A DNA stretch of 32,000 nucleotides from Delftia acidovorans NBRC 14950 (GTDB lineage: Bacteria > Pseudomonadota > Gammaproteobacteria > Burkholderiales > Burkholderiaceae_C). The DNA lies in NCBI RefSeq assembly GCF_001598795.1, contig NZ_BCZP01000010.1, positions 207,082 through 239,081 on the forward strand, written 5' to 3'. Position 1 is the stretch's first letter, and every line of letters starts with the position of its first letter. The notes under the pieces are model-generated. The model saw only the letters and a list, made by a program, of their open reading frames with translations. It had not been told where the DNA came from and did not search any database. A program made the translations under genes and the position numbers. Of the stretch, positions 2,363 through 32,000 are shown piece by piece.

Positions 2363-3856
2363 TCAGCGCGTCCGGCGGCGCCGGCGCATTGCCGCCATGG
2401 CCAGCAGCACCGAGGCCGATGTGGCCGCCAGACCCGCAAGGTTCCACACGGGAATGGCTGCAGCAGACGTCGCCGCCATCACCATGATGCCGCCCGGATC
2501 GACCACCACGCCATTGGCCTGCAGGTCATCGTCGCCCAGGCCACCGTCCTGGACTTCCAGGGTGTAGGTATTGGCCGAGATCACCTTGAAGCCGTCGTTG
2601 AAGGCATACCAGTGCGGTGCCGGGTTGGCCGCCGTGGGACCGTATTTCCAGTACTGGGCACCCGCGGGCAGGGCCTGCGGCATGGTGACGCTGAGCTTCA
2701 GCGTCGCGCCTGAGTTGCAGCCCGACGAGCGCAGGTTCAGCACGCCCAGCGGATAGGCCGCTGCACCCTGGGGCGGCGCCGTGGGCAGGCTTTGCGCACG
2801 CACCAGCGATGCCGATTGCAGGCTGCAGCCGCTGGCCGGATTGCTGACGGTCAGCGTCGCGCTGCCGCCTTGCAGGGTCGAGATGGTGGTGGCGCCAGCG
2901 ACAGGGGCGTTGACCGTCAGGGGCTGCGAGGCTGGCCCCGCGCCGCTGCTGGACTGTGCCGCCACGCTGCAGTTGTAGGCCACGCCGGGCGTCAGGCCGT
3001 TGACCGCCACCGTCGGAGTGCTGGACGTGCCCGTCAGCACCGCGCCGCCGCCTTGCGGGACGCATTGCGCCACATAGCCCGTGACCGTCTGGCCGGGGAT
3101 GGAGGCGACCGGATCGAAGGTCAGCTGCATGGCCGTGCCCTGCGCGAAAAAGCCCGTATCGGCAGGTGGCTGAAGTGCGCCCGGAACGCTGCCGGACCAG
3201 ACACTCATCGCATCCACGCCGAAGAACAGGCTTTGCCGGTTGTCCACCTCGGCAATGCGCAGCCGCACGGTCTGGCCCGCGTAGGCCGACAGGTCGAACT
3301 GCAGCGACTGGTAGCCGCTGCCGCTGGCCGAAGGGCCGGGCACCGTGGCCGGCGGCCACTGGAAGACATTGGCCAGCACACCGGCGCCCAGGCTGTCGGG
3401 CGCGGCTGCAGGGTTCATGACGTCGATGCGCACCTGCTGGTTGGGCGCAGCCACCGTGTAGTCAAGCGTGGCCGGCGCCGCAGCGACCTTGGCCGCATTC
3501 TGGACATGGACGCGGGCGCTCAGCGTGGCCGGGCTGCCCGCCGGAATGGCGACGTCCTGGTAGAGCACATGGCTGCCGGGGCCGGGCTGGTCGCTCATGA
3601 GGGCAAACGCCCCGTCGGGAGGTGCAGGCACGGCCACGGGCGTGATGGCGCCCCTGGTGCCTTGCTGGGCGGCGAAGCCGCCCTTGGAGCCGGCCTGGGA
3701 CACGGATTGCCAGCCCGTGAAAACCAGGGAACCCGGACCGGAGTTCTGCTCGAAACTGCCGTTGGCCAGCAGTTCGGCGGCTTGCGCCGGGCCCAGGGCC
3801 GCAAACACCGCAAGCCCCAGACAGGACTTGCGGGCAACGCCTTTTACGCTGTGCAT
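2363..3856 (-). CDS. Secreted multidomain protein: signal peptide, galactose-binding/CBM-like N-domain, FN3-like domain, C-terminal IPTL-CTERM-like sorting tail
   Basis: Signal peptide LGLAVFAALGPAQA-AE is followed by ELLANGSFE...GW, a typical CBM-like opening. An FN3-like segment reads GLTPGVAYNCSVAAQSSSGAGPAS. The C-terminus is GLGDDDLQANGVVVDPGG...IPVWNLAGLAATSASVLLAMAAMRRRRRTR: a short motif, a hydrophobic helix and an Arg cluster. Confidence 0.6.
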   Translation of the reverse strand: MHSVKGVARKSCLGLAVFAALGPAQAAELLANGSFEQNSGPGSLVFTGWQSVSQAGSKGGFAAQQGTRGAITPVAVPAPPDGAFALMSDQPGPGSHVLYQDVAIPAGSPATLSARVHVQNAAKVAAAPATLDYTVAAPNQQVRIDVMNPAAAPDSLGAGVLANVFQWPPATVPGPSASGSGYQSLQFDLSAYAGQTVRLRIAEVDNRQSLFFGVDAMSVWSGSVPGALQPPADTGFFAQGTAMQLTFDPVASIPGQTVTGYVAQCVPQGGGAVLTGTSSTPTVAVNGLTPGVAYNCSVAAQSSSGAGPASQPLTVNAPVAGATTISTLQGGSATLTVSNPASGCSLQSASLVRAQSLPTAPPQGAAAYPLGVLNLRSSGCNSGATLKLSVTMPQALPAGAQYWKYGPTAANPAPHWYAFNDGFKVISANTYTLEVQDGGLGDDDLQANGVVVDPGGIMVMAATSAAAIPVWNLAGLAATSASVLLAMAAMRRRRRTR

Positions 3857-9972: not shown

Positions 9973-11217
9973 TCACAGCACCACCTCGCCGGCGGGCGCC
10001 TGCAGCGCCTCGCGCACGTCCTCGCGGCGGCTCTTTTCCAGATAGGCGCGGGACTTGTCCACCTCCTGCGACAGCGTGTCCACCGTGGTCTGCATGGAGG
10101 CCAGGGCCTTGACCTTGAAGTCGGCCATGGCGTCCATGGTCTGGTAGATGTTGCCGAAGGCCTGCTGCAGCTTGGCGATGTCGATGGTGCTGCTGGCCGC
10201 CTGCTCGTGGATCTTGCCGCTTTGCTCGCGCAGCAGCTCGCTGGTGCCGGCGATCAGGTTGCCCGTGGTGGTGTTCAGCGCCGTGATCTGGTCCAGCACC
10301 AGCTTCTGGTTGGCCAGCGCCTGCGCCACGATGACGGCCGTGCGCAGGGCAGAGACCGTGGTGGTGGTCGCGCGGTCCACGCCCTTGGCCAGTTCGAGGT
10401 TGTTCTTGCGCACCAGGTCCAGCGCCAGGTAGCCCTGCACGTTCACCGCCATCTGGGTGAGCAGGTCGGTGACCTTCTGGCGTGCGTAGAACAGCATGTC
10501 CTCGCGCACCACGCGGGCCTTTTCGGGGTCGCTGGCGTCCAGCTGTGCGGCCTTGGCATCCAGCGCCGCGTCCAGCTTCTTGCCGATGTGGATGTATTTT
10601 TCCAGCCGCTCCATCAGGCCCCACAGGTTGGCCTTTTCCTGCTCGATGGCGGCGTTGTCGCGCAGCAGCTCGTCCTTGCCGCGCTTGAGGCTGTCGATGA
10701 TGGCGTTCAGGTGGCTCTGGCTGGACTGGAATTTGTCGAAGTAGTCCACCAGCCTGTTGCCCATGGGGATCAGGCCCAGCAGCTTGCGCGGCTTGAACAG
10801 GTCGTCCTGGCGCGAGGGGTCCAGCGCCTCCACCTGGCGGCGCAGCTCGATCAGGCCCTGGCCGATCTGGCTGCCCTGGTCGAACAGGCCGTTGTTCAGC
10901 GTCTTGACGGGGCGCTCCAGCATGCGGTTGGAGACGGCGGCAGCGGCCTGCACCTCCTTGTTGCCCATGCCGTGGATGCGCTCGACCGCGCCCTTGAAGG
11001 CGGGCGACTGGCTGTCGTTGGCGGTGATGTCGTCGATGAACTGCGCCACCTGTGCGTCCAGCTGCTGCACTTCCTCGGCCTTGAGGCGGACCTTGCCGCT
11101 GGCCGACTCGATGGGCACGGGCAGGGCGGGCGCAGGCGGCTCCAGCACGAAATCCTGCTCCTGTGCAGGCACGGCCACGGCGGCGCTGGCAGTGGTGGTC
11201 TGGGGGGTGTTGCTCAT
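9973..11217 (-). CDS. telA: TelA/KlaA-family toxic anion resistance protein
   Basis: 414 aa, all-helical, with no signal peptide. The opening matches the TelA family layout (peptide-rich N-terminus, then FIDDI..., KGAVERIHGMGNKE, LIELRRQVEALDP, LLRDNAAIEQEKANLW). AGGAG lies upstream of the ATG. Confidence 0.8.
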   Translation of the reverse strand: MSNTPQTTTASAAVAVPAQEQDFVLEPPAPALPVPIESASGKVRLKAEEVQQLDAQVAQFIDDITANDSQSPAFKGAVERIHGMGNKEVQAAAAVSNRMLERPVKTLNNGLFDQGSQIGQGLIELRRQVEALDPSRQDDLFKPRKLLGLIPMGNRLVDYFDKFQSSQSHLNAIIDSLKRGKDELLRDNAAIEQEKANLWGLMERLEKYIHIGKKLDAALDAKAAQLDASDPEKARVVREDMLFYARQKVTDLLTQMAVNVQGYLALDLVRKNNLELAKGVDRATTTTVSALRTAVIVAQALANQKLVLDQITALNTTTGNLIAGTSELLREQSGKIHEQAASSTIDIAKLQQAFGNIYQTMDAMADFKVKALASMQTTVDTLSQEVDKSRAYLEKSRREDVREALQAPAGEVVL

Positions 11218-11239
11218 CGGTTGCTCCTGGAACGTTCGG

Positions 11240-12352
11240 TCATTTGAAGCGCTGCTCCATGTCCACGATCATTCGCTCCAGCCACTCCTGGCTGGGCGGA
11301 TCGATCACATCCACCAGCTGCGCGGGCGCCTGCACGCCCTGCCCGGCCCAGCGCTCGGGCCCGTGCGTGTCGCCGCCGGTGCGAAAGCCGTATTCCTGCG
11401 CCAATGCGCGCAGTTGCGGATCGGATTCGAGCAGCTGGCCCACGCGATCGCCCGCAGGCGTGTAGGGCACGAGCACATGCTTGGAATACAGCGTGGGCTG
11501 CGGGTAGAGCATCACCATCTCGCCGCTTCTGCGCTGCGGGTGGCGCAGCAGGAACTCCACCAGCTGCGATTCATAGGCCACCAGCAGCGGCGCCTTGCCC
11601 ATGCCCAGGGCCAGGTAGTCCTCGAACGGCCCGGCCGACGAGCTTTCCTGGAAGCCCTGGCGCAAAAACAGCGGCGCCACCTGGGGCATCACGCGCTCCA
11701 GGTCGGCCGGGCTTTGCACCACCTGCTGGCCGTTGAGCACATAGCTGGCCAGCGCCAGGTACATGGCCGCGCTGTTGGAGCTGCGCACATCGGTGCTGGC
11801 GGGCAGCACGGCCTTGCCGGTGGCAAAGGCGCCGGAGGCCTTCAGGTCACGCCAGCGCGTGCCCTTGCCGGCCATGGCCAGCAGGGAGGGAAGATCGGTC
11901 ACGTAAAAGAAGTCGCCCTGCTTTTGCGCAACGCCGTTGGCGATCAGGATCTCGGCAATGGGCCGCCAGCTGGCGAACACGATGGGCGTGTAGAACGGCG
12001 TATAGACGGTAGCGGCCCTGGCCGCCGCCTTGAGCTGGGCTGCAGCCGGCGCACCCGAGGGAAAGCCGAAGTCGTACTGCTTGGGGTCGTAGCTGTTGGC
12101 AATGCTGCGCGAGCCGGCCTTTTGCACCGTCACCGTCACGCCGTGGCGCGCCAGCACGTCGCGCACGCGCTCGTCCTGGAAGAAGGCTTCCTTCTCGGAG
12201 CCGATCAGGCCGCGTGCCGTCACGGACGGCTGCTGCGTCAGCTGCGCCTGGCGGTCCTGCACCAGGGCCGTGCGCGAGTACCAGACGCCGCCGCCCACGG
12301 CCGCCAGCAGCAGCGCCGCCAGCCCCGCCGCCAAAGCACGGCGCGCGTTCAT
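11240..12352 (-). CDS. Membrane-anchored PBP-like (solute-binding-fold) protein, paralogue of the N-domain of the vWA lipoprotein
   Basis: 370 aa. N-terminal anchor is AAGLAALLLAAVGGGVWY. By eye it aligns with the vWA protein N-half (SSNSAAMYLALASYV versus SSNTGMSALFAVASAV, with similar spacing of flanking blocks). Only 22 nt separate it from telA. Confidence 0.55.
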   Translation of the reverse strand: MNARRALAAGLAALLLAAVGGGVWYSRTALVQDRQAQLTQQPSVTARGLIGSEKEAFFQDERVRDVLARHGVTVTVQKAGSRSIANSYDPKQYDFGFPSGAPAAAQLKAAARAATVYTPFYTPIVFASWRPIAEILIANGVAQKQGDFFYVTDLPSLLAMAGKGTRWRDLKASGAFATGKAVLPASTDVRSSNSAAMYLALASYVLNGQQVVQSPADLERVMPQVAPLFLRQGFQESSSAGPFEDYLALGMGKAPLLVAYESQLVEFLLRHPQRRSGEMVMLYPQPTLYSKHVLVPYTPAGDRVGQLLESDPQLRALAQEYGFRTGGDTHGPERWAGQGVQAPAQLVDVIDPPSQEWLERMIVDMEQRFK

Positions 12353-12426
12353 TGAGAGGCTCCGCCCTGGATGACGGCAAGATGAAATTCGGTCATGAAC
12401 GCGCGGGCCGTTGTCATGTTTTGTTC

Positions 12427-12452
12427 AAAAAAACTTCTTATACGGAAGTTTT
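12427..12452 (-). terminator. AT-rich hairpin plus U tract: weak terminator or operator between the orphan gene and the PBP/TelA operon
   Basis: Perfect 8-bp inverted repeat AAAACTTC-N7-GAAGTTTT. On the minus strand it is followed by further T residues. It lies 68 nt downstream of the 12520 stop, in a local AT-rich patch. Confidence 0.35.
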
Positions 12453-12486
12453 GTGACACAACGACGACACGCGGCCCGGCCCGCGC

Positions 12487-12534
12487 CGCGACTACCTCAA
12501 CGCGACTATCTCAGCGCGACTACCTCAGCGCGAG
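12487..12534. repeat. Three and a half tandem copies of a 14-nt unit CGCGACTAYCTCAR
   Basis: cgcgactacctcaa / cgcgactatctcag / cgcgactacctcag / cgcgag are read directly. The array overlaps the last codons and TAG stop of the 12520..14016 gene. It lies 135-180 nt upstream of the PBP-like gene start. Confidence 0.8.
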
Positions 12535-14016
12535 TTGCTCAGTGAAGCTGCGCCCACCGGGCGTTTCGCGGTGCTGCTGGGTGCGGTGCTCCACCAGCTG
12601 GTCCCACGTCTGCATCTGGCGCTCTTGCGTCTTGCGCAGCGCGCCGGTGACCTGCTTGCCGGCTGTCTCGATCAGCGTGGTGATGGTGCGGCTGTCCTGC
12701 ACCTTGGTCAGGTCATAGTTGCCCGACTGCAAATCCAGCATGCTGCGGTTGCGCGCCTTTTTGGACTCGGCGTTCAGGGACTCGGTCACCACCTGGGCGA
12801 TCGACTCGCCCTCCCTGCCGCGGGACTGCCGGGTGGTCTTCTGGCCCACCTGGTACTCGGCGCGGCCGATTTCGGTCACGGCGCCGAATTCGTTGGTGTT
12901 CTCGAAATCACCGCTGAAGCTGGCCTGGAAATCGGCCAGACCGCTTTGCAGGGACTGCACGGAACGCTCCAGCCCGGAGAGCGCGACGATGGCGCCCGGC
13001 GCGGCCGGCGCCTGCGCGTTGTGCAGCTGACTGAAGGCACTCTTGAACATGTCCACCAGCGCCGCATCCGCACGGCCGCGCTGCGCGGCGGCATCAAAGC
13101 GCTTCAGATGCTGGTCCAGCGCGGACTGGCGCTGTGAAGCGCTGGCGCCCACGGGGGCATCGGACTCCAGGTTGACGGCCAGCTCGCCAGCCGCGCCCTT
13201 CATCGCCACCGATCGGCCATCGGCGCCCACATGCAGGCTGAACGAGGACAGGGACTGCGAAGGCTTGGGGTTCTTGATGTCCAGGTCCAGGCCGGACAGC
13301 ACGCTGCGGTCGAAGTCCATCAGCTTGCCCAGTTCCAGCTGGGGCTTGCCCGGCTTTCCCAGGCCTTCCAGCGCTTCGTCCAGCCCGTCGGCCAGCTGGG
13401 CAATGGCCGCGCTCTCGGCCTGGCTCAAGGTGCCGGAACTCTTGACCTCGACCCGCAGCCCGCTGCTGCTGCCCGCTTCGCTGCCGTCGTTCGTGGCAAT
13501 CCGCAGCTCCACGGTCTGGCCCGATTGCGTGCGGATCTTCAGGCTCACGGTGGCAGCGCCCACGGACACATCGCTCAGTGCGGACTTGTCCAGGGCCTGC
13601 GCATCCGCGCTGCCTGCGACGGAGTCGGCCGCCGTGGGCGCCTGGTACTCCGCAACCGTCTGTTGGTAGTCCGACGGCGTGGCCGCAAAGCGCGACAGCA
13701 GGGCGCCGCCCAGGCCGCGCCAGCGGTCGGCCAGGCTGGCCGACGGGCCCAGGCCCAGGTTGCGCGCCATCAGGGTGCTGATGTCGTCCCTGTCTTGCGA
13801 GGCCCAGGCCCGGGTCAGCCTGAACTGGCCCAGTTCCACGGGCTGCGGTTTGGCATAGATGACGCTGGACCCTGTGGACTGGCCCAGCGTGACCTGCGTG
13901 CCCGGTTCGGCGGGTGCAGCAGCTGCCGTGGTCGCTGACGACCTCACGGACACCGTGGGCCGCATGCCCGCTGCGCTGGCGGCAAAGCTGGCGCCGGTGG
14001 ATGAAATGCTGGTCAT
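12520..14016 (-). CDS. Hypothetical Ser/Ala/Gly/Gln-rich protein, no recognisable domain
   Basis: 498-aa ORF with GGAAG upstream of the ATG and GC3-rich codon usage like its neighbours. There is no signal peptide or TM segment, and the N-terminal 60 aa are low-complexity. I recognise no family. Confidence 0.6.
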   Translation of the reverse strand: MTSISSTGASFAASAAGMRPTVSVRSSATTAAAAPAEPGTQVTLGQSTGSSVIYAKPQPVELGQFRLTRAWASQDRDDISTLMARNLGLGPSASLADRWRGLGGALLSRFAATPSDYQQTVAEYQAPTAADSVAGSADAQALDKSALSDVSVGAATVSLKIRTQSGQTVELRIATNDGSEAGSSSGLRVEVKSSGTLSQAESAAIAQLADGLDEALEGLGKPGKPQLELGKLMDFDRSVLSGLDLDIKNPKPSQSLSSFSLHVGADGRSVAMKGAAGELAVNLESDAPVGASASQRQSALDQHLKRFDAAAQRGRADAALVDMFKSAFSQLHNAQAPAAPGAIVALSGLERSVQSLQSGLADFQASFSGDFENTNEFGAVTEIGRAEYQVGQKTTRQSRGREGESIAQVVTESLNAESKKARNRSMLDLQSGNYDLTKVQDSRTITTLIETAGKQVTGALRKTQERQMQTWDQLVEHRTQQHRETPGGRSFTEQLALR

Positions 14017-26418: not shown

Positions 26419-27662
26419 TCTCCGCCCACACCGCATCCTCCCCCGCCCGCGAACTGGTCGTGGTGCTCAACTGCGGCTCGTCCAGCATCAAGTTCGCCGT
26501 CTTCGACGGTGCCCAGCGCCCGCTGCCGCGCAAGCCGCTGTGGAACGGCAAGGTCCAGGGCATCGGCGGGCCCGCGCCCGACTTCGGCGAGAGCGGCGTG
26601 CCGCCCTTTGCCATTGCCCTGGATGCCGCTCACCCCTACCGCGCCGCGCTGCAGCTGATCCGCGAGCGCATCACCGCGCGGCTGGCGCAGCTGGACGGCG
26701 CCCGCGTGGCCGCCGTCGCCCACCGCGTGGTGCACGGCGGCAGCCGCTACTTCGAGCCCGTGCGCGTCGATGCCGGCGTGCTGGCCGACCTCAAGGCCTT
26801 CATCCCGCTGGCGCCGCTGCACCAGCCCTTTGCGCTGGAGGCCATGGACATCCTGCTGCGCGAGCGGCCCGAACTGGTGCAGGTGGCCTGCTTCGACACC
26901 GCCTTCCACCACACGCTGCCCAAGGTCGAGCAACTGCTGCCCCTGCCGCACGCGGCCTGGGAGCGCGGGCTGCGCCGCTACGGCTTCCACGGCCTGTCCT
27001 ACGAATACATGGCCACCGCCCTGCCCGAGCGCCATGGCGACCTGGCACGCGGGCGCACCCTGGTGGCCCACCTGGGCAGCGGCGCCAGCCTGTGCGCCAT
27101 GCAGGGCCTGCAAAGCGTGGCCACGACCATGGGCTTCTCTGCGCTGGATGGCCTGATGATGGGCACGCGCACCGGCGCGCTGGACCCCGGCGCCGTGATC
27201 TACCTGATGGAAATCGAAAAGCTCAGCCTGCAGGAAGTGGGCCGCATCCTGTACCACGAGTCCGGCCTGCTGGGCGTCTCGGGCACCTCGTCCGAGCCGC
27301 GCGTGCTGCTGCCGCTGGAGTCAGGCGGCGATGCCCAGGCCGAGCGCGCGCGCGATGCGCTGGCCCTGTACGTGCGGCGCATCGTGCGCGAGATCGGCGC
27401 CCTGGTCGCCGTGCTGGGCGGCCTGGACCTGCTGGTGTTCACCGCAGGCGTGGGCGAGCACAGCGCCGAGATACGGCGGCGCGTGTGCGAGGGCCTGGGC
27501 TTTCTGGGCCTGCGGCTGGACGCCGAGGCCAATGCGCGCGATGCGGCCGTGATCTCGGCCACCGGCAGCGCCGTCACCGTGGGCGTGGAGCCCACCAACG
27601 AGGAATGGGTGGCAGCGCGCCATGCGCTGCGCTGGCTGCCGGGCAACGCGATCCCCGCATGA
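26415..27662 (+). CDS. ackA: Acetate/propionate/butyrate-family kinase
   Basis: 415 aa, embedded in the tracked frame 25206..27662. ATGA overlap with the upstream stop. VLNCGSSSIKF, HRVVHGG, FDTAFHHTLP, RRYGFHGLSYEY and FTAGVGEHS are ASKHA acetate-kinase signatures. Confidence 0.9.
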   Translation: MISAHTASSPARELVVVLNCGSSSIKFAVFDGAQRPLPRKPLWNGKVQGIGGPAPDFGESGVPPFAIALDAAHPYRAALQLIRERITARLAQLDGARVAAVAHRVVHGGSRYFEPVRVDAGVLADLKAFIPLAPLHQPFALEAMDILLRERPELVQVACFDTAFHHTLPKVEQLLPLPHAAWERGLRRYGFHGLSYEYMATALPERHGDLARGRTLVAHLGSGASLCAMQGLQSVATTMGFSALDGLMMGTRTGALDPGAVIYLMEIEKLSLQEVGRILYHESGLLGVSGTSSEPRVLLPLESGGDAQAERARDALALYVRRIVREIGALVAVLGGLDLLVFTAGVGEHSAEIRRRVCEGLGFLGLRLDAEANARDAAVISATGSAVTVGVEPTNEEWVAARHALRWLPGNAIPA

Positions 27663-27675
27663 GTGTGAACAGGCC

Positions 27676-28026
27676 CTAGGAACGATCGTCCTGCGCACCG
27701 CCTTCGCGCAGCCGCGCGAACTCGCGGTGCTCGTAGGCAATGCATTCCTCCATGAGGTGGCGGTACACCGCCTCCATCATGTCGGGCTGGCCGCCCTCGG
27801 CGGCCGTGCGCTCGCGCACGCGGCGCACGATGGCCTCGATGCGGCCCTCGTCGCGCACCTGGGCCGCATCGGCCTTGATGCGCGCGGCCTGCTGCATGTA
27901 GCCCATGCGCGTGACCAGCAGCGGCACCAGCACATCGTCCAGCGCATCCACATTGCGGCGCACATCCAGCATGTCGGTGCAGTGCTGCACCAGGTCGATG
28001 GCCTGCTTGGCGCGGTCCGTGCTCAT
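27676..28026 (-). CDS. AroQ-class chorismate mutase-like protein (possibly PchB-type), translationally coupled to trpE
   Basis: 116 aa, MSTDRAKQAIDLVQHCTDMLDVRRNVDALDDVLVPLLVTRMGYMQQAARIK.... The R-x(10)-D/L-LL-R helix pattern matches AroQ helix 1, and the protein is all-helical. The ATG at 28026 overlaps the trpE TGA (ATGA). Confidence 0.7.
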   Translation of the reverse strand: MSTDRAKQAIDLVQHCTDMLDVRRNVDALDDVLVPLLVTRMGYMQQAARIKADAAQVRDEGRIEAIVRRVRERTAAEGGQPDMMEAVYRHLMEECIAYEHREFARLREGGAQDDRS

Positions 28027-29522
28027 TCCAGTCCTTCCTCCACCAGCTCGGCCGCGCGCATCAATGCGCGCGCCTTGTGCTCGGTCTCTTTCCATTCCAT
28101 CTCGGGCACGGAATCGGCCACCACGCCGGCGGCGGCCTGCACGTAGAGCGTGCCGTCCTTGATCACGCCGGTGCGGATGGCAATGGCCAGGTCCATGTCG
28201 CCCGCAAAGCTCAGGTAGCCGCAGGCGCCGCCGTAGATGCCGCGCTTGGTGGGCTCCAGCTGGTCGATGACCTCCATGGCATGCACCTTGGGCGCGCCCG
28301 TCAGCGTGCCGGCCGGGAAGGTGGCCTTGAACACGTCCATGTTGTCCATGCCGTCGCGCAGAATGCCCTCCACGTTGCTGACGATGTGCATCACGTGGCT
28401 GTAGCGCTCCACGGCAAAGGCCTCGGTCACCTTCACGCTGCCCGTCTTGGCGATGCGGCCGATGTCGTTGCGCGCCAGGTCGATCAGCATCACGTGCTCG
28501 GCGCGTTCCTTGGGGTCGGCCACCAGCTCCTTTTCGGTGGCCTTGTCGGCCTCGGGCGTGGCGCCGCGCGGGCGCGTGCCGGCCAGCGGGCGGATGGTGA
28601 CCTTCTGGCCCTCGTCCGTGTTCTCCTGGCGCACCAGGATCTCGGGGCTTGCGCCCACCACATGGAAATCGCCCAGGTGGTAGTAGTACATGTAGGGGCT
28701 GGGATTGAGCGAACGCAGCGCGCGGTACAGGCTCAAGGGGCTGGCCGTGAAGCGCTTGTGGATGCGCTGGCCCACCTGCACCTGCATGAAGTCGCCCGCG
28801 GCGATCAGCTCCTTGGCCTTCTCCACGGCCGCCAGGTAGTCTTCCTTGGCAAAGCTGCGCTGGGCCGGATGGCTCTCGCCGGCCTTGATCTGCGGCGCGC
28901 TGACCGAGTAGCGCAGCAGATCCTTCAACTGCCGCAGCCGCTTCTTGGCGCGCGTATAGGCCTCGCTCTCGCCGGGGTTGGCATAGACGATCAGGTACAG
29001 CTTGCCCGACAGGTTGTCGATCACCGCCACTTCCTCGCACTGCAGCAGCAGGATGTCGGGGCAGTTGAGCGTATCGGGCGGGCAGGAATCTTCCAGCTTC
29101 TTCTCGATATAGCGCACGGCGTCGTAGCCGAAGTAGCCGGCCAGCCCGCCGCAAAAACGCGGCAGCCCCGGGCGCAGCGCCACCTTGAAGCGCTTTTGGT
29201 AGGCAGCGATGAAATCCAGCGGATTGCCCTTGGCCGTCTCCACCACCTGGCCATCGGTCACCACCTCGGTGCATGCCGCATCGCCGAAGCCGCTGGCGCG
29301 CAGCAGCGTGCGTGCAGGCAGGCCGATGAAGCTGTAGCGCCCGAAGCGCTCGCCGCCCACCACGGACTCCAGCAAAAAGCTGTGCTTGCCGTCACCGCCC
29401 GCATGGGCCAGCTTGAGGTAGAGGGACAGGGGGGTTTCGAGATCCGCAAACGCCTCGACCATCAGAGGGATGCGGTTGTAGCCCTGCGCAGCAAGGCTCT
29501 TGAATTCGAGTTCGGTGATCAC
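28023..29522 (-). CDS. trpE: Anthranilate synthase component I
   Basis: 499 aa. LLESV..GERFGRYSFIG, PYMYYY, GTLTGAPK and GIYGGACGYLSFAGDMDLAIAIRT are hallmark TrpE blocks. GTG start with GGAG 9 nt upstream. Confidence 0.93.
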   Translation of the reverse strand: MITELEFKSLAAQGYNRIPLMVEAFADLETPLSLYLKLAHAGGDGKHSFLLESVVGGERFGRYSFIGLPARTLLRASGFGDAACTEVVTDGQVVETAKGNPLDFIAAYQKRFKVALRPGLPRFCGGLAGYFGYDAVRYIEKKLEDSCPPDTLNCPDILLLQCEEVAVIDNLSGKLYLIVYANPGESEAYTRAKKRLRQLKDLLRYSVSAPQIKAGESHPAQRSFAKEDYLAAVEKAKELIAAGDFMQVQVGQRIHKRFTASPLSLYRALRSLNPSPYMYYYHLGDFHVVGASPEILVRQENTDEGQKVTIRPLAGTRPRGATPEADKATEKELVADPKERAEHVMLIDLARNDIGRIAKTGSVKVTEAFAVERYSHVMHIVSNVEGILRDGMDNMDVFKATFPAGTLTGAPKVHAMEVIDQLEPTKRGIYGGACGYLSFAGDMDLAIAIRTGVIKDGTLYVQAAAGVVADSVPEMEWKETEHKARALMRAAELVEEGLE

Positions 29523-29649
29523 GGGGAAAGACTCCGGATTGCGTGGCGCTGGCAGACCTGGTGTGGGTGCGGGCTGCGTATGGATTGCGCCGATTCATTC
29601 GATTGGCCCGTGGGGCCTCGGGTGCACGCCGGGTCGCGCCCCGGGTGCT

Positions 29650-29733
29650 TCAGCTGTTCAGTTGGACAGGCTTGCGCCAGGGCCAGGCTCCCCGGTCTCC
29701 ACAACCTGCAATGAACATGCGATGAATGAACAT
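29650..29733 (-). promoter_or_regulatory. Candidate trp leader peptide ORF (27 codons, Trp-Pro-Trp)
   Basis: The minus strand reads ATG TTC ATT CAT CGC ATG TTC ATT GCA GGT TGT GGA GAC CGG GGA GCC TGG CCC TGG CGC AAG CCT GTC CAA CTG AAC AGC TGA, 127 nt upstream of trpE. Two UGG codons fall within three positions. GC-rich hairpins follow (for example GGCCC-CAC-GGGCC). I see no clear SD and no U-tract terminator. Confidence 0.35.
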
Positions 29734-29741
29734 AGCGGGCA

Positions 29742-29769
29742 AGTGTAGCGCAGACGCGGCTGGGTACAA
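29742..29769 (-). promoter_or_regulatory. Possible sigma70-like promoter for the trpE leader
   Basis: Minus strand has TTGTAC, a 16-nt spacer, then TACACT, immediately upstream of the leader ORF. Weak matches only. Confidence 0.2.
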
Positions 29770-29820
29770 GTGCGGACCGGCGCCTTGCGGGGGCGCCGCA
29801 GGGGCCTGCCATGGCCACAA

Positions 29821-29849
29821 TTGACACCCTGGTCAGCCTGACCAACAAT
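29821..29849 (+). promoter_or_regulatory. Candidate sigma70 promoter for the Phd-like/PIN-like/patatin operon
   Basis: TTGACA (29821-29826), a 17-nt spacer, then AACAAT (29844-29849). The ATG at 29880 is preceded by GAAAGG. Confidence 0.4.
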
Positions 29850-29879
29850 GGCAGCACAACCTGACCAGAAAGGTCGACC

Positions 29880-30275
29880 ATGCCGTCCCATTTCTCCGCC
29901 CGCACCGACGCTGCCTTGCCCGAGGGCGAGCGCGACCCGCTGAACCGCGCCCTGCGGGACCTGAGCCATCAGGTCGGATCGGCCATGCCGCGCAACACCA
30001 CGCCCATGCCGATCTCGGTCTTCAAGGCGCAGTACGGCTCGGTGCTCAAACAGGCCGATCACGACGGGGTGGCCCTCATCTCCCAGGGCCGCAAGCGCTA
30101 CGTGATCGTCAGCGAGGAGCACATGGTGGCCCTGTCCGCCAACGAGCGCGCCCCCCGCACGGTGGCCGACATCTGCCGGTCCCTGCCGCTGCCGCGCCAG
30201 GCCGTGGATCTGTCCGCTGCGCAGATGTCCGGGGCGCGCGGCGATATCGACGTACCCGCCCGGCGCGCGCCATGA
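29880..30275 (+). CDS. Phd/YefM-like antitoxin-domain protein with N- and C-terminal extensions
   Basis: 131 aa. The core MPISVFKAQYGSVLKQADHDGVALISQGRKRYVIVSEEHMVAL matches the Phd/YefM fold pattern (compare YefM ISYSEARQNL...[20 protein letters not shown]). The stop overlaps the next ATG (ATGA). An alternative internal start at 29985 has a poorer RBS. Confidence 0.6.
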   Translation: MPSHFSARTDAALPEGERDPLNRALRDLSHQVGSAMPRNTTPMPISVFKAQYGSVLKQADHDGVALISQGRKRYVIVSEEHMVALSANERAPRTVADICRSLPLPRQAVDLSAAQMSGARGDIDVPARRAP

Positions 30276-30721
30276 GCCGCTACCTGCTGGGCCCCCGCTG
30301 CCTGCTGTGGATGGCGAACCAGGAACCCGCAACCCTGCAGTGGTTCTCCACCATCCGGCCGCTGGACTGCATCGTCAGCGACCTGTCCATGGCCATCGCC
30401 AAGGCCGCCGTGGCCGAGGCATTCCACGACCTGCGCGACCGCAACGAGTGGTTCTCCCTGCTCGACGCGCTGTATGCCAACCTGCGGGCCGAAGGCGCCT
30501 CCATGCTGACCAGCGTGGACAACAAGGTGCTGGAGCGCTTCATCGAATGGCGCAACTTCGCGCCGCTGGACAGCCAGGGCCCGCAGGGCACGGCGCCCCT
30601 GGCGCAGGACCTGCGGCTGCTCATCGCCACGGCCGACCTGCTCAAGGTCTGCTACACCGAACCCGCCAACCTCTACCTGACGCAGGCCGCCGCCCGGGGC
30701 GTCACCGTGCACGCGCTGTGA
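30272..30721 (+). CDS. PIN/VapC(FitB)-like domain protein with degenerate active site
   Basis: 149 aa. It is colinear by eye with FitB/VapC: RYLLGPRCLLWM versus ILLDTNVI, and AQDLRLLIATADLLKVCYTEP versus AADGYIAATAKQHSMTVATRD. The first catalytic Asp is Gly7 (codon 30290-30292). The Glu of helix 2 and the last Asp also appear substituted. Confidence 0.5.
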   Translation: MSRYLLGPRCLLWMANQEPATLQWFSTIRPLDCIVSDLSMAIAKAAVAEAFHDLRDRNEWFSLLDALYANLRAEGASMLTSVDNKVLERFIEWRNFAPLDSQGPQGTAPLAQDLRLLIATADLLKVCYTEPANLYLTQAAARGVTVHAL

Positions 30722-31701
30722 TGGACTTCGACGTACCGCCCCTGTCCAGCGCGGTGCGCCAGGGCCTGCGCAGGCGCCGGGTCGTCCTGAGCCTGTCGGG
30801 CGGCGGCTATCGCGGCCTGTTCAGCGCACATGTGCTGGAGCGCATCCACCGCGAATTCGGCAACGGCGACCTGCTGGAGAAAGTGGACCTGTTCGCCGGC
30901 ACCTCCATCGGCGCAATCATCGCCACCGCCCTGGCCAGCGGCTGCCAGCCCGCGCGCATCAAGCAGCTGCTGCTGGACCACGGCCCCGCCATCTTTCCCT
31001 CCAAATGGCTGCCCGGCCTGCGCCAGGCCATGGGCAAGGCGCTCTATGACAGCGCCCCGCTGCGCGCAGCGATCAAGGAGGCCATGCCGCAAGCGGAGCA
31101 GTCCGCCCTGGGGCAACTGCAGGTGCCGCTGCTGCTGCCCGCCGTGAACTGGAATTCATCGCAGCTGCACGTGCTGGCCAGCGGCGCCCTGCCCGACAGG
31201 GACCGGCTGGGCCTGACGCTGATGGACGCCATGCTGGCCTCATCGGCCGCCCCCACCTACTTTCCCGCGCACGCCGCAGCAGGCCATGTCTTCGTGGACG
31301 GCGGACTCGCCGCCAACGCGCCCGACCTGCTGGCCCTGCAGGCCGCCCGCCAGCTCTGGGGGCCGGCCGCCGACATCGTGATGATCAGCATAGGCACCGC
31401 CAACCCCCAGCAGGGCCAGGACCCCGTGGCCATGCCCCGGCGCGGGCTGACCCTGGTCAAGCCCCTGCTGGACCTGGTCATGGCCGCCCAGGAGGTCCAG
31501 GCCGTCAAGGCGGCCCGCCAGGAACTGGGCACCAGCAGCTACCTGCGCCTGAACTTCACGCAGCCCGCAGCCCAGCAAAAGCGCCTGGGCCTGGACATCG
31601 CCAACGCCGACAGCACCCGTCTGCTGCAGGCCCTGGGCGACGAATGCATCGCCGCCCTCACGGACCAGGAAAAGACGCTGCTGAAGAACGTCCTGGGCTG
31701 A
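30721..31701 (+). CDS. Patatin-like phospholipase (cytosolic, catalytic motifs intact)
   Basis: 326 aa, embedded in the tracked frame 30307..31701. The ATG overlaps the upstream TGA (TGATG). Oxyanion hole is SGGGYRG. Nucleophile elbow is GTSIG, with Ser62 at 30904-30906. Catalytic Asp is in VDGGLAANAP (Asp193). No signal peptide. Confidence 0.85.
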   Translation: MDFDVPPLSSAVRQGLRRRRVVLSLSGGGYRGLFSAHVLERIHREFGNGDLLEKVDLFAGTSIGAIIATALASGCQPARIKQLLLDHGPAIFPSKWLPGLRQAMGKALYDSAPLRAAIKEAMPQAEQSALGQLQVPLLLPAVNWNSSQLHVLASGALPDRDRLGLTLMDAMLASSAAPTYFPAHAAAGHVFVDGGLAANAPDLLALQAARQLWGPAADIVMISIGTANPQQGQDPVAMPRRGLTLVKPLLDLVMAAQEVQAVKAARQELGTSSYLRLNFTQPAAQQKRLGLDIANADSTRLLQALGDECIAALTDQEKTLLKNVLG

Positions 31702-31739
31702 AGCCCCAGGCCAAGCGAAGCGAAGGCCCTACAGGGCTT
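31701..31739. terminator. Imperfect hairpin between convergent genes
   Basis: AAGCCC...GGGCTT outer arms enclose inner GGCC-aagcgaagcgaa-GGCC. There is no U tract. It lies between the patatin stop (31701) and the convergent stop (31750). Confidence 0.3.
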
Positions 31740-31749
31740 GCAAAGAGAA

Positions 31750-32000
31750 TCAGCGCTCAAACGCCGCCGAAGCCGCAGCCATCCGCCGCAGATACGCCGG
31801 ATCCTCCTGCAGGCAATGCACGTAGCTCACCTCGTCCTCCACCAGCTCCTCCATCCGCTGCGCAGCCCCGCAAATGGCCTGCAGCGCATTGGCCACCACC
31901 TCCAGATTGCGATGGCCCTCGGGCCGCTCCAGCCAGGCCAGCGCCAGCTGGCCCAGCGAATACACCTCGCTGCTGCCTTGCAGCGTCAGCCGGCCGATCT
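31750..32000 (-). CDS. Hypothetical protein, C-terminal fragment (frame open to window edge)
   Basis: The frame is open from nt 32000 down to the TGA at 31750 (...IGRLTLQGSSEVYSLGQLALAWLERPEGHRNLEVV...AAFER). I recognise no domain. The tracked GTG at 31965 is probably internal. Confidence 0.45.
   Translation of the reverse strand, partial: IGRLTLQGSSEVYSLGQLALAWLERPEGHRNLEVVANALQAICGAAQRMEELVEDEVSYVHCLQEDPAYLRRMAAASAAFER

Follow-up and report, generated by a model that had tools for sequence, protein, structure and literature searches.

A 32,000-nucleotide stretch of the Delftia acidovorans NBRC 14950 genome (contig NZ_BCZP01000010.1, positions 207,082 to 239,081 of the forward strand; hereafter the window, with position 1 as its first letter) carries three overlapping genes, here called g1, g2 and g3, which code for a Phd/YefM-like protein, a PIN-fold protein with a degenerate active site and a patatin phospholipase. 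We propose, at a rough probability of 0.55, that this trio is a tripartite toxin-antitoxin (TA) or abortive-infection module, in which the lipase would be the effector and control would be protein-based, exerted via g1 and g2. The initial annotation of the window had already taken the lipase for the real toxin and the Phd-like/pseudo-PIN pair for its regulators. This reading is favoured by the acids missing from the PIN centre, the co-occurrence of the three genes, natural g2-g3 fusions, an operator over the promoter and the loss of contacts for cyclic GMP-AMP (cGAMP) in the lipase. All coordinates and motifs quoted in that annotation proved correct.

How the three proteins might work together is a more tentative matter. 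In particular, a partner switch is possible, although we would not bet on it: the dead PIN protein would replace cGAMP as the activator of a CapV-type lipase, and the tail of g1 would mimic the N-terminal docking peptide of that lipase.

Three coupled genes that stay together

All three genes lie on the forward strand. The first, g1 (29880-30275, 131 amino acids), would encode a putative antitoxin and autorepressor; g2 (30272-30721, 149 amino acids) is the proposed adaptor, and g3 (30721-31701, 326 amino acids) the proposed effector. The overlaps on which the initial annotation based the translational coupling of these open reading frames (ORFs) are both present: ATGA at 30272-30275 between g1 and g2, and TGATG at 30719-30723 between g2 and g3.

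A genome scan with a narrow g2 alignment gave four species-representative genomes, so that the distribution is under-sampled. Wherever a relative had sufficient flanking DNA, all three genes were present and their order was unchanged, even where g2 identity is down to about 25%. Trio loci were found in Delftia (L001-6, L013 and L014), where the trio is kept across D. acidovorans and D. tsuruhatensis, in Ramlibacter (L007, L016), Alicycliphilus (L027-29) and Stenotrophomonas (L030), and in metagenomic lineages with g2 identities of 22-39% (L017, L021, L022, L024-26 and L032). The g2 and g3 of the window share 98-99% identity with database entries from D. acidovorans. The junction between g2 and g3 is a 4-nt overlap or a direct abutment in all loci, and the coupling of these two genes is more conserved than that of g1 and g2. 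In Alicycliphilus L027 (7442-7546), a 103-nt spacer separates g1 from g2, while g2 and g3 still overlap by 4 nt. One further locus with a trio, L015 (NZ_CACSJA010000039.1, deposited as 'Pantoea sp. 18069'), has 84% g2 identity to Delftia, a Delftia-type promoter/operator and high GC; this contig looks Comamonadaceae-like, and its Pantoea label may stem from contamination or from assembly of a co-culture.

The flanking genes differ fully between lineages. For example, the trio stands beside trpE in Delftia, a homogentisate pathway in L010, and nrdDG and Uma2 in Alicycliphilus. Three of the surroundings are defence or mobile islands: those in Stenotrophomonas L030 (3301-13154; integrases, TIR, McrBC, a methyltransferase and MobA), in L009 (15439-20387; a DpnII restriction-modification system and a Gabija-like OLD-TOPRIM/UvrD pair) and in L032 (1-5225; an integrase, KfrA and a GAAD/GASH/DO-GTPase2 conflict system). 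The neighbours in L031 are IS1595 and ParB/KorB. Co-occurrence in other genomes, on which the initial annotation had made its reading depend, is therefore found, with the same gene order, tight g2-g3 junctions and unrelated contexts that include some defence islands.

Moreover, g2 and g3 are naturally fused in P0044 (480 amino acids, a cluster of five sequences) and in P0203 (476 amino acids), two proteins that share 37% identity over both halves. Their linkers hold a stretch resembling the motif described below (SPYTARIP in P0044, EDPDALRAP in P0203). Such fusions speak for a joint function of g2 and g3, as a single unit. A third candidate, the 274-residue P0043, was rejected as a frameshifted Delftia sequence.

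The PIN-fold protein g2

Sequence profiles say little about g2. It has no match in NCBIfam, PADLOC or PHROGs, and in Pfam only a chance-level one (C2_TCB1, E 0.051; 13.7 bits, where the cut-off is 27). Its family is small, with 34 clusters at 50% identity among 1.8 billion representatives. The fold is more telling. An AlphaFold2 model built with 16 homologues reached a predicted local distance difference test score (pLDDT) of 93, and the top 19 Foldseek matches in the PDB are all VapC, FitB or other PIN-domain proteins, with template modelling (TM) scores up to 0.68 (5ed0, E 2e-5, TM 0.68). A PIN fold (three-layer alpha/beta/alpha) is thus predicted with confidence.

The active site was compared with that of Shigella flexneri VapC (sequence 100% identical to 3tnd_A), whose catalytic acids are D7, E42, D98 and E119. 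Both the g2 family alignment and its profile alignment to this VapC are collinear. In 21 of 21 aligned members the position of D7 is taken by glycine (Gly7) and that of E42 by alanine (Ala41) or another small residue. E119 aligns probably to Tyr135, and the only acid retained is D113, which lies near D98. On this alignment, two of the four PIN acids, and probably a third, are missing from g2. The names of the Foldseek matches describe D7 substitutions in VapC as inactivated crystallisation mutants; since the same position in g2 is a glycine, a nuclease function is unlikely. The initial annotation had inferred from the window alone that g2 carries glycine in place of the first catalytic aspartate and has lost at least one more acid. 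Both losses run through the family, and the set of four acids that an ordinary VapC would keep is not complete. Distant g2 relatives P0050 and P0051 have an aspartate two residues after the canonical PIN aspartate (LLPVDTLL and LLSGDVLL), perhaps a remnant of the catalytic centre of their ancestor.

The CapV-clade lipase g3

The third protein matches the Pfam Patatin family PF01734 at 93.7 bits (threshold 27.7; E 2.2e-26). Its relatives with known roles belong to the cyclic-oligonucleotide-based antiphage signalling system (CBASS): g3 scores 210 bits against the NCBIfam model CBASS_lipase NF041079 (cut-off 200) and 6.7e-65 against the PADLOC phospholipase effector PDLC00758. Its best sequence matches in the PDB are the solved CapVs, and the family profile reaches 9wn1 at E 1.5e-53. 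These sequence comparisons place g3 within the CapV clade of CBASS. Lipase homologues at E<1e-30 number at least 1,263.

The catalytic machinery described in the initial annotation (GGGxRG, GTSIG and DGG) is indeed intact. The oxyanion/phosphate-binding loop G27-G-G-Y-R-G32 (30799-30816), the catalytic serine in GTS62IG (Ser62 codon at 30904-30906) and the catalytic aspartate in D193GG (Asp193 codon at 31297-31299), all on the forward strand, are invariant in 18 family members and align with R21, S58 and D192 of AbCapV, the CapV of Acinetobacter baumannii.

No CD-NTase cyclase was found in the window or within 3-10 kb of about 15 independent related loci, which agrees with the initial annotation. 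Of the CBASS components, PADLOC reported the effector alone, and no Cap2 or Cap3 lies in the operon or nearby. The lipase itself also differs at the ligand site. According to PMC12480259, AbCapV contacts cGAMP through F147, K149, D159, E207 and R279, and mutation of each abolishes filaments and activity; apo-CapV is inactive and is activated by ligand-induced oligomerisation. We aligned eight trio lipases with two solved CapVs, which share KTPHNP (with K149) and a glutamate at 207 (IREV/LHEA). All eight trio lipases have alanine or glycine in the K149 column, alanine, cysteine, tyrosine or tryptophan in the E207 column, and valine or leucine at F147. The equivalent of D159 is ambiguous (D161, one column off, may be a retained D159), and at R279 the two solved CapVs themselves differ. 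The alignment thus suggests that the conserved contacts K149 and E207 have been lost in trio lipases. These proteins also have 20-45 extra N-terminal residues, whereas the solved CapVs start 4-10 residues before strand 1.

The NCBI Prokaryotic Genome Annotation Pipeline (PGAP) names the Delftia protein 'CBASS cGAMP-activated phospholipase', a name assigned because such lipases just pass the NF041079 cut-off (210 vs 200). Clusters P0056, P0095, P0118, P0131, P0169 and others carry it too. Because no cyclase adjoins the loci examined and K149 and E207 are replaced, the entire lipase clade has probably been over-annotated systematically with the cGAMP-activated label.

The Phd/YefM-like protein g1 and its promoter

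The assignment of g1 is less secure. Its match to PF02604 (PhdYeFM) has an E of 8.9e-4 and a score of 19.4 bits, which does not reach the gathering score of 29.8 bits. Nine of its 12 orthologues match this model too, over the corresponding region (best E 3.2e-5), and hhalign places the family against Phd at E 0.0017. When PDB sequences were searched with the g1 profile, bromodomain noise came first (E about 0.05-0.2), and the E for Phd was only 0.92. The Phd/YefM core seen in the initial annotation is plausible from these comparisons: the agreement among orthologues and the profile alignment speak for it, while the Pfam score falls short (19.4 vs 29.8 bits). In the family alignment, an additional conserved helix at the N-terminus stands before the Phd-like core (about residues 44-87), and the core is followed by a conserved TVADxLxSLPxP element and a variable tail. 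The C-terminal region, which holds this element and the terminal motif discussed below, is disordered.

Upstream of g1 stands a single sigma-70-like promoter (29821-29849, forward strand), with TTGACA at -35 (29821-29826), a 17-nt spacer and AACAAT at -10 (29844-29849). It matches the consensus at 10 of 12 positions and is the sole such site in 29500-32000, where shuffled sequence would give 0.1; the promoter proposed in the initial annotation is therefore sound, being alone in 2.5 kb. A -35 box (TTGACA, TTGACT or TTGCAT) is found at the same place in L007, L009, L010, L015, L017, L027, L030 and L032.

The spacer of this promoter is filled by a perfect operator-like palindrome with 7-nt arms, TGGTCAG-c-CTGACCA (29830-29844). 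Past the -10 box, just ahead of the ribosome-binding site, comes a third half-site, CCTGACCAG (29860-29868). Half-sites CTGGTCAG/CTGACCAG surround the -35/-10 region in Ramlibacter, Alicycliphilus, Stenotrophomonas, L009, L015, L017 and L032. The third half-site reads CCTGACCAG in L007, L009, L010 and L015 and CTGACCAG in L027, L030 and L032, and L017 has a palindrome, ATGACCA-ccc-TGGTCAT, at this position instead. Across lineages, a palindrome and a third half-site are thus kept over the -35/-10 region, in front of an operon of three genes and not two as in type II TA systems. We infer from this layout, which is that of a classic antitoxin-repressed promoter, that g1 is the putative binding protein.

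In the most divergent clade, TGTACA repeats replace CTGGTCAG/CTGACCAG in the promoter (two in L022, at about 3225-3355, and three in L024, at about 430-562). This replacement suggests that the operator and the DNA-binding specificity of g1 may have diverged together.

A short motif common to g1 and g3

The tail of g1 and the start of g3 look alike. In Delftia, the g1 C-terminal motif D122-I-D-V-P126 (30243-30257) resembles the motif D2-F-D-V-P6 (30724-30738) in the N-terminal extension of g3, both on the forward strand; the latter is absent from solved CBASS CapVs. A rough consensus common to the two is [DE]-x-[YF]-x-[LV]-P. The pairs change together from lineage to lineage. In the window, the g1 tail GDIDVPARRAP-stop goes with the g3 N-terminus MDFDVPPLS; in Ramlibacter, NDIALPALRG-stop goes with SSDIALPALS; in L017, HDPYSLPKLDV-stop with VDPYVLPDN; in Alicycliphilus, HDPFTLPRA-stop with DEPFTLPAG; in L022, LDQYRLGARA-stop with HDQYRLPPG; and in Stenotrophomonas, REMYSIVPRG with PREYLRLPPG.

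This likeness was tested in ten lineages by local alignment against composition-preserving shuffles, which gave a combined Fisher p of 2.8e-5. The sum of the scores of cognate pairs also exceeded that of permuted pairings (p = 0.0012). At the level of sequence, then, the motif tends to covary by lineage. A constraint acting on the DNA was rejected as the cause, given that the two coding segments are 470 nt apart and there is no comparable overlap with other genes.

Proposed mechanism and alternatives

The partner switch would work as follows. The effector that kills would be g3, an intact patatin descended from CapV that has lost its cyclase partner and cGAMP contacts and gained an N-terminal extension; its output would be the hydrolysis of membrane phospholipids, probably as in CapV. 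A former VapC-type PIN protein, g2 would have lost its nuclease centre and would now serve as a lipase adaptor or regulatory subunit. For its part, g1 would repress the operon at the CTGGTCAG/CTGACCAG operators and hold g2 with its disordered C-terminus. In VapBC complexes, the C-terminus of the antitoxin binds the groove of the PIN protein. Because the g1 tail and the g3 N-terminus carry the same short motif, the two would compete for one site, which is most likely the groove of g2 that was once its active site. The second conserved C-terminal element of g1, TVADxLxSLPxP, is not found in g3, which would make g1 the stronger, bivalent binder. When g1 is plentiful, it would occupy g2 and the lipase would stay inactive, as apo-CapV does. 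When labile g1 is lost (e.g. by phage-induced shut-off or loss of the element), g2 would engage the lipase N-terminus and activate it. Dimeric g2 may even link dimers of the lipase into larger assemblies and so stand in, as a protein, for cGAMP.

Several points weigh against this picture, or against the wider proposal of a lipase module under the control of g1 and g2. Which protein binds which, the direction of the switch, the lability of g1, toxicity and the trigger are all inferred. The likeness of the motifs was spotted post hoc, in segments that are short and proline-rich, and four of the ten lineages (L021, L025, L026 and L032) show no individually significant match. A prediction for L032, written in advance, was matched at the level of residue class only (HEQFSMA vs YDPYRLP). 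The loss of contacts is argued from two solved CapVs and an alignment in which D159 may have been kept as D161, and the Phd/YefM call for g1 lies below the Pfam threshold. In g2, D113 and an acidic residue at 130 are retained, so that residual metal binding is conceivable. An AlphaFold2 model of the fusion P0044, made from homologues of g2 and of g3 aligned without pairing, was uninformative (the PIN half was all-helical, with a pLDDT of 40-60). From the side of ecology, the Delftia operon stands in a housekeeping neighbourhood with a composition that looks native, and no g2 relatives were found in plasmids, phages or IMG/VR viral contigs.

Other arrangements of the same parts have to be considered. 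Instead of acting through g2, g1 might cap g3 directly: the arm of one g3 would dock on a neighbouring g3, the tail of g1 would mimic this arm, and the part of g2 would be confined to stabilising g1 or to repressing together with it, in the manner of conditional cooperativity. We regard this as doubtful, yet it accounts for a good deal. The binding site for the shared, covarying motif could lie on g3 no less than on g2; contacts within oligomers or filaments are required to activate CapV, as set out in PMC12480259; and the separate TVADxLxSLPxP element could be the part of g1 that binds g2. It gives no reason, however, why two lineages should have g2 and g3 fused, with a linker that holds the motif, and it leaves unexplained that their junction is the most tightly conserved overlap. 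Moreover, the site it proposes is not the one expected of a VapBC antitoxin, whose C-terminus binds the PIN groove, and g2 keeps the PIN fold. At the other extreme, the locus might be an ordinary VapBC pair beside an orphan CBASS lipase that is still activated by cGAMP from a cyclase elsewhere in the genome. The lipase does pass the CBASS_lipase equivalog cut-off (210 vs 200), from which the PGAP name follows, and the CD-NTase search covered the neighbourhoods of the loci. Even so, an ordinary pair is very improbable for a g2 without the equivalents of the essential D7 and E42, in a trio that stays together in unrelated contexts and diverse taxa and of which fusions exist. An orphan CapV would also not be expected to have K149 and E207 replaced throughout its clade, or a trio-specific N-terminal extension that shares a motif with g1.

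A different question is what the module is for. It might be mainly an addiction/stabilisation cassette or a stress switch of its island and not a defence against phage, or the lipase might carry out a non-lethal remodelling of the membrane under the control of g1 and g2. The Delftia trio, beside trpE, of native composition and kept in both D. acidovorans and D. tsuruhatensis, would suit such a role, as would the integrase, KfrA, ParB/KorB and IS (insertion sequence) elements that are its neighbours in other loci. There is also a precedent for a milder outcome: in one preprint (PMC13160051), a membrane-acting CBASS effector is reported to limit phage production while cells stay viable. On the other hand, defence genes are frequent neighbours (restriction-modification, OLD/UvrD, McrBC, TIR and GAAD/GASH), and those closest to g3 among characterised proteins are effectors of abortive infection. 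We therefore consider these roles unlikely, and prefer a TA or abortive-infection module with the lipase as its effector.

Surroundings of the operon in Delftia

The trio is preceded by trpE (28023-29522, reverse strand), which encodes anthranilate synthase component I (Chorismate_bind match); it is divergent from the trio and serves here as context only. The initial annotation had called the trio an insertion beside the trpE control region. This word has no support from composition: the GC content of the trio (about 0.70) is the same as that of its flanks, and the idea of a compositionally foreign insertion was rejected on this ground. Upstream of trpE, a short ORF (29650-29733, reverse strand) encodes MFIHRMFIAGCGDRGAWPWRKPVQLNS, with two tryptophan codons (W-P-W). 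From its sequence it is plausibly a trp leader peptide/attenuator, set back-to-back with the g1 promoter. An Rfam scan of 27000-32000 found nothing credible, the region of the leader ORF included.

Downstream, a convergent ORF of 104 amino acids, from 31750 onward, is cut by the end of the window. It has no Pfam or PHROG match and is not kept beside the trio outside Delftia. Between the stop of g3 and this ORF (31701-31770) lie an imperfect hairpin, AAGGCCCTACAGGGCTT, and a terminator-like site on the minus strand (31766-31751), which together may form a shared bidirectional terminator.

Far from the trio, within 9973-14016, a TelA (toxic anion resistance) gene (9973-11217, reverse strand) is followed by two large ORFs with high GC at third codon positions (11240-12352, 370 amino acids; 12520-14016, 498 amino acids). 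Neither has a Pfam match at E<=1e-5, and the three may form an uncharacterised TelA-associated cluster.

Relation to known systems and significance

The components of the trio are familiar. The closest relatives of g3 are the CapVs of CBASS (Vibrio cholerae DncV-CapV; A. baumannii AbCapV, PDB 8zr9; 9kh6/9wn1), of which it is a full-length homologue with the same Ser-Asp dyad and GGGxRG loop. It differs from them in that the trio has no CD-NTase and no Cap2/Cap3, K149 and E207 are not conserved, an N-terminal extension of 20-45 residues is present, and the gene always follows those for a Phd-like and a pseudo-PIN protein. With no cyclase and ligand contacts that appear not to be conserved, the trio falls outside the definition of CBASS. 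It resembles VapBC/FitAB in the order of antitoxin then PIN gene, the overlapping stop and start codons, the operator-like palindrome over the promoter, the PIN fold of g2, and the folded core and disordered C-terminal tail of g1. Here, however, the PIN centre is degenerate and a third coupled gene is the likely toxin; two of the four acids, and probably a third, are absent by alignment, and g2 does not count as a VapC.

Three-gene TA operons are known as well. In toxin-antitoxin-chaperone (TAC) HigBA-SecB, in HipBST and in PaaR-PaaA-ParE, the third protein modulates the interaction of toxin and antitoxin, and in TAC it recognises the C-terminal tail of the antitoxin. The trio has no homology to SecB, HipS or PaaR. 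It also differs from these tripartite systems in that its middle protein has a dead toxin fold, its effector is a lipase and the tail motif is duplicated on the effector. As a mechanism only, the proposed partner switch would follow the same logic as RsbV/RsbW/SigB, where two ligands compete for one protein; the trio shares neither homology nor phosphorylation components with that system.

The initial annotation did not recognise the combination as a described defence or TA family. In agreement, we found no description of it in Pfam, NCBIfam 2026, PADLOC 2023 or PHROGs, which hold no models for g1 and g2, nor in the literature searched on patatins with toxin-antitoxin, PIN, VapC or Phd, or on orphan CapV. 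What is known, then, is the components and the general logic of TA and abortive infection; what is plausibly new is their combination and the proposed control of a CapV lipase by a protein ligand.

If this is true, CBASS effectors would be portable to a protein-based trigger, a toxin fold would be reusable as an adaptor after the loss of catalysis, and the space in which to search for defence and TA systems would be wider than 'known sensor + known effector'. Should the partner switch operate through a short linear motif, a prospect we rate below even odds, it would make a VapBC module the sensor of an abortive-infection effector. The PGAP label 'CBASS cGAMP-activated phospholipase', carried by hundreds of these proteins, would then need correcting. 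Finally, the trio would offer a compact three-protein system for studying the off/on control of CapV-type lipases, with predicted peptide motifs that can be mutated or swapped.

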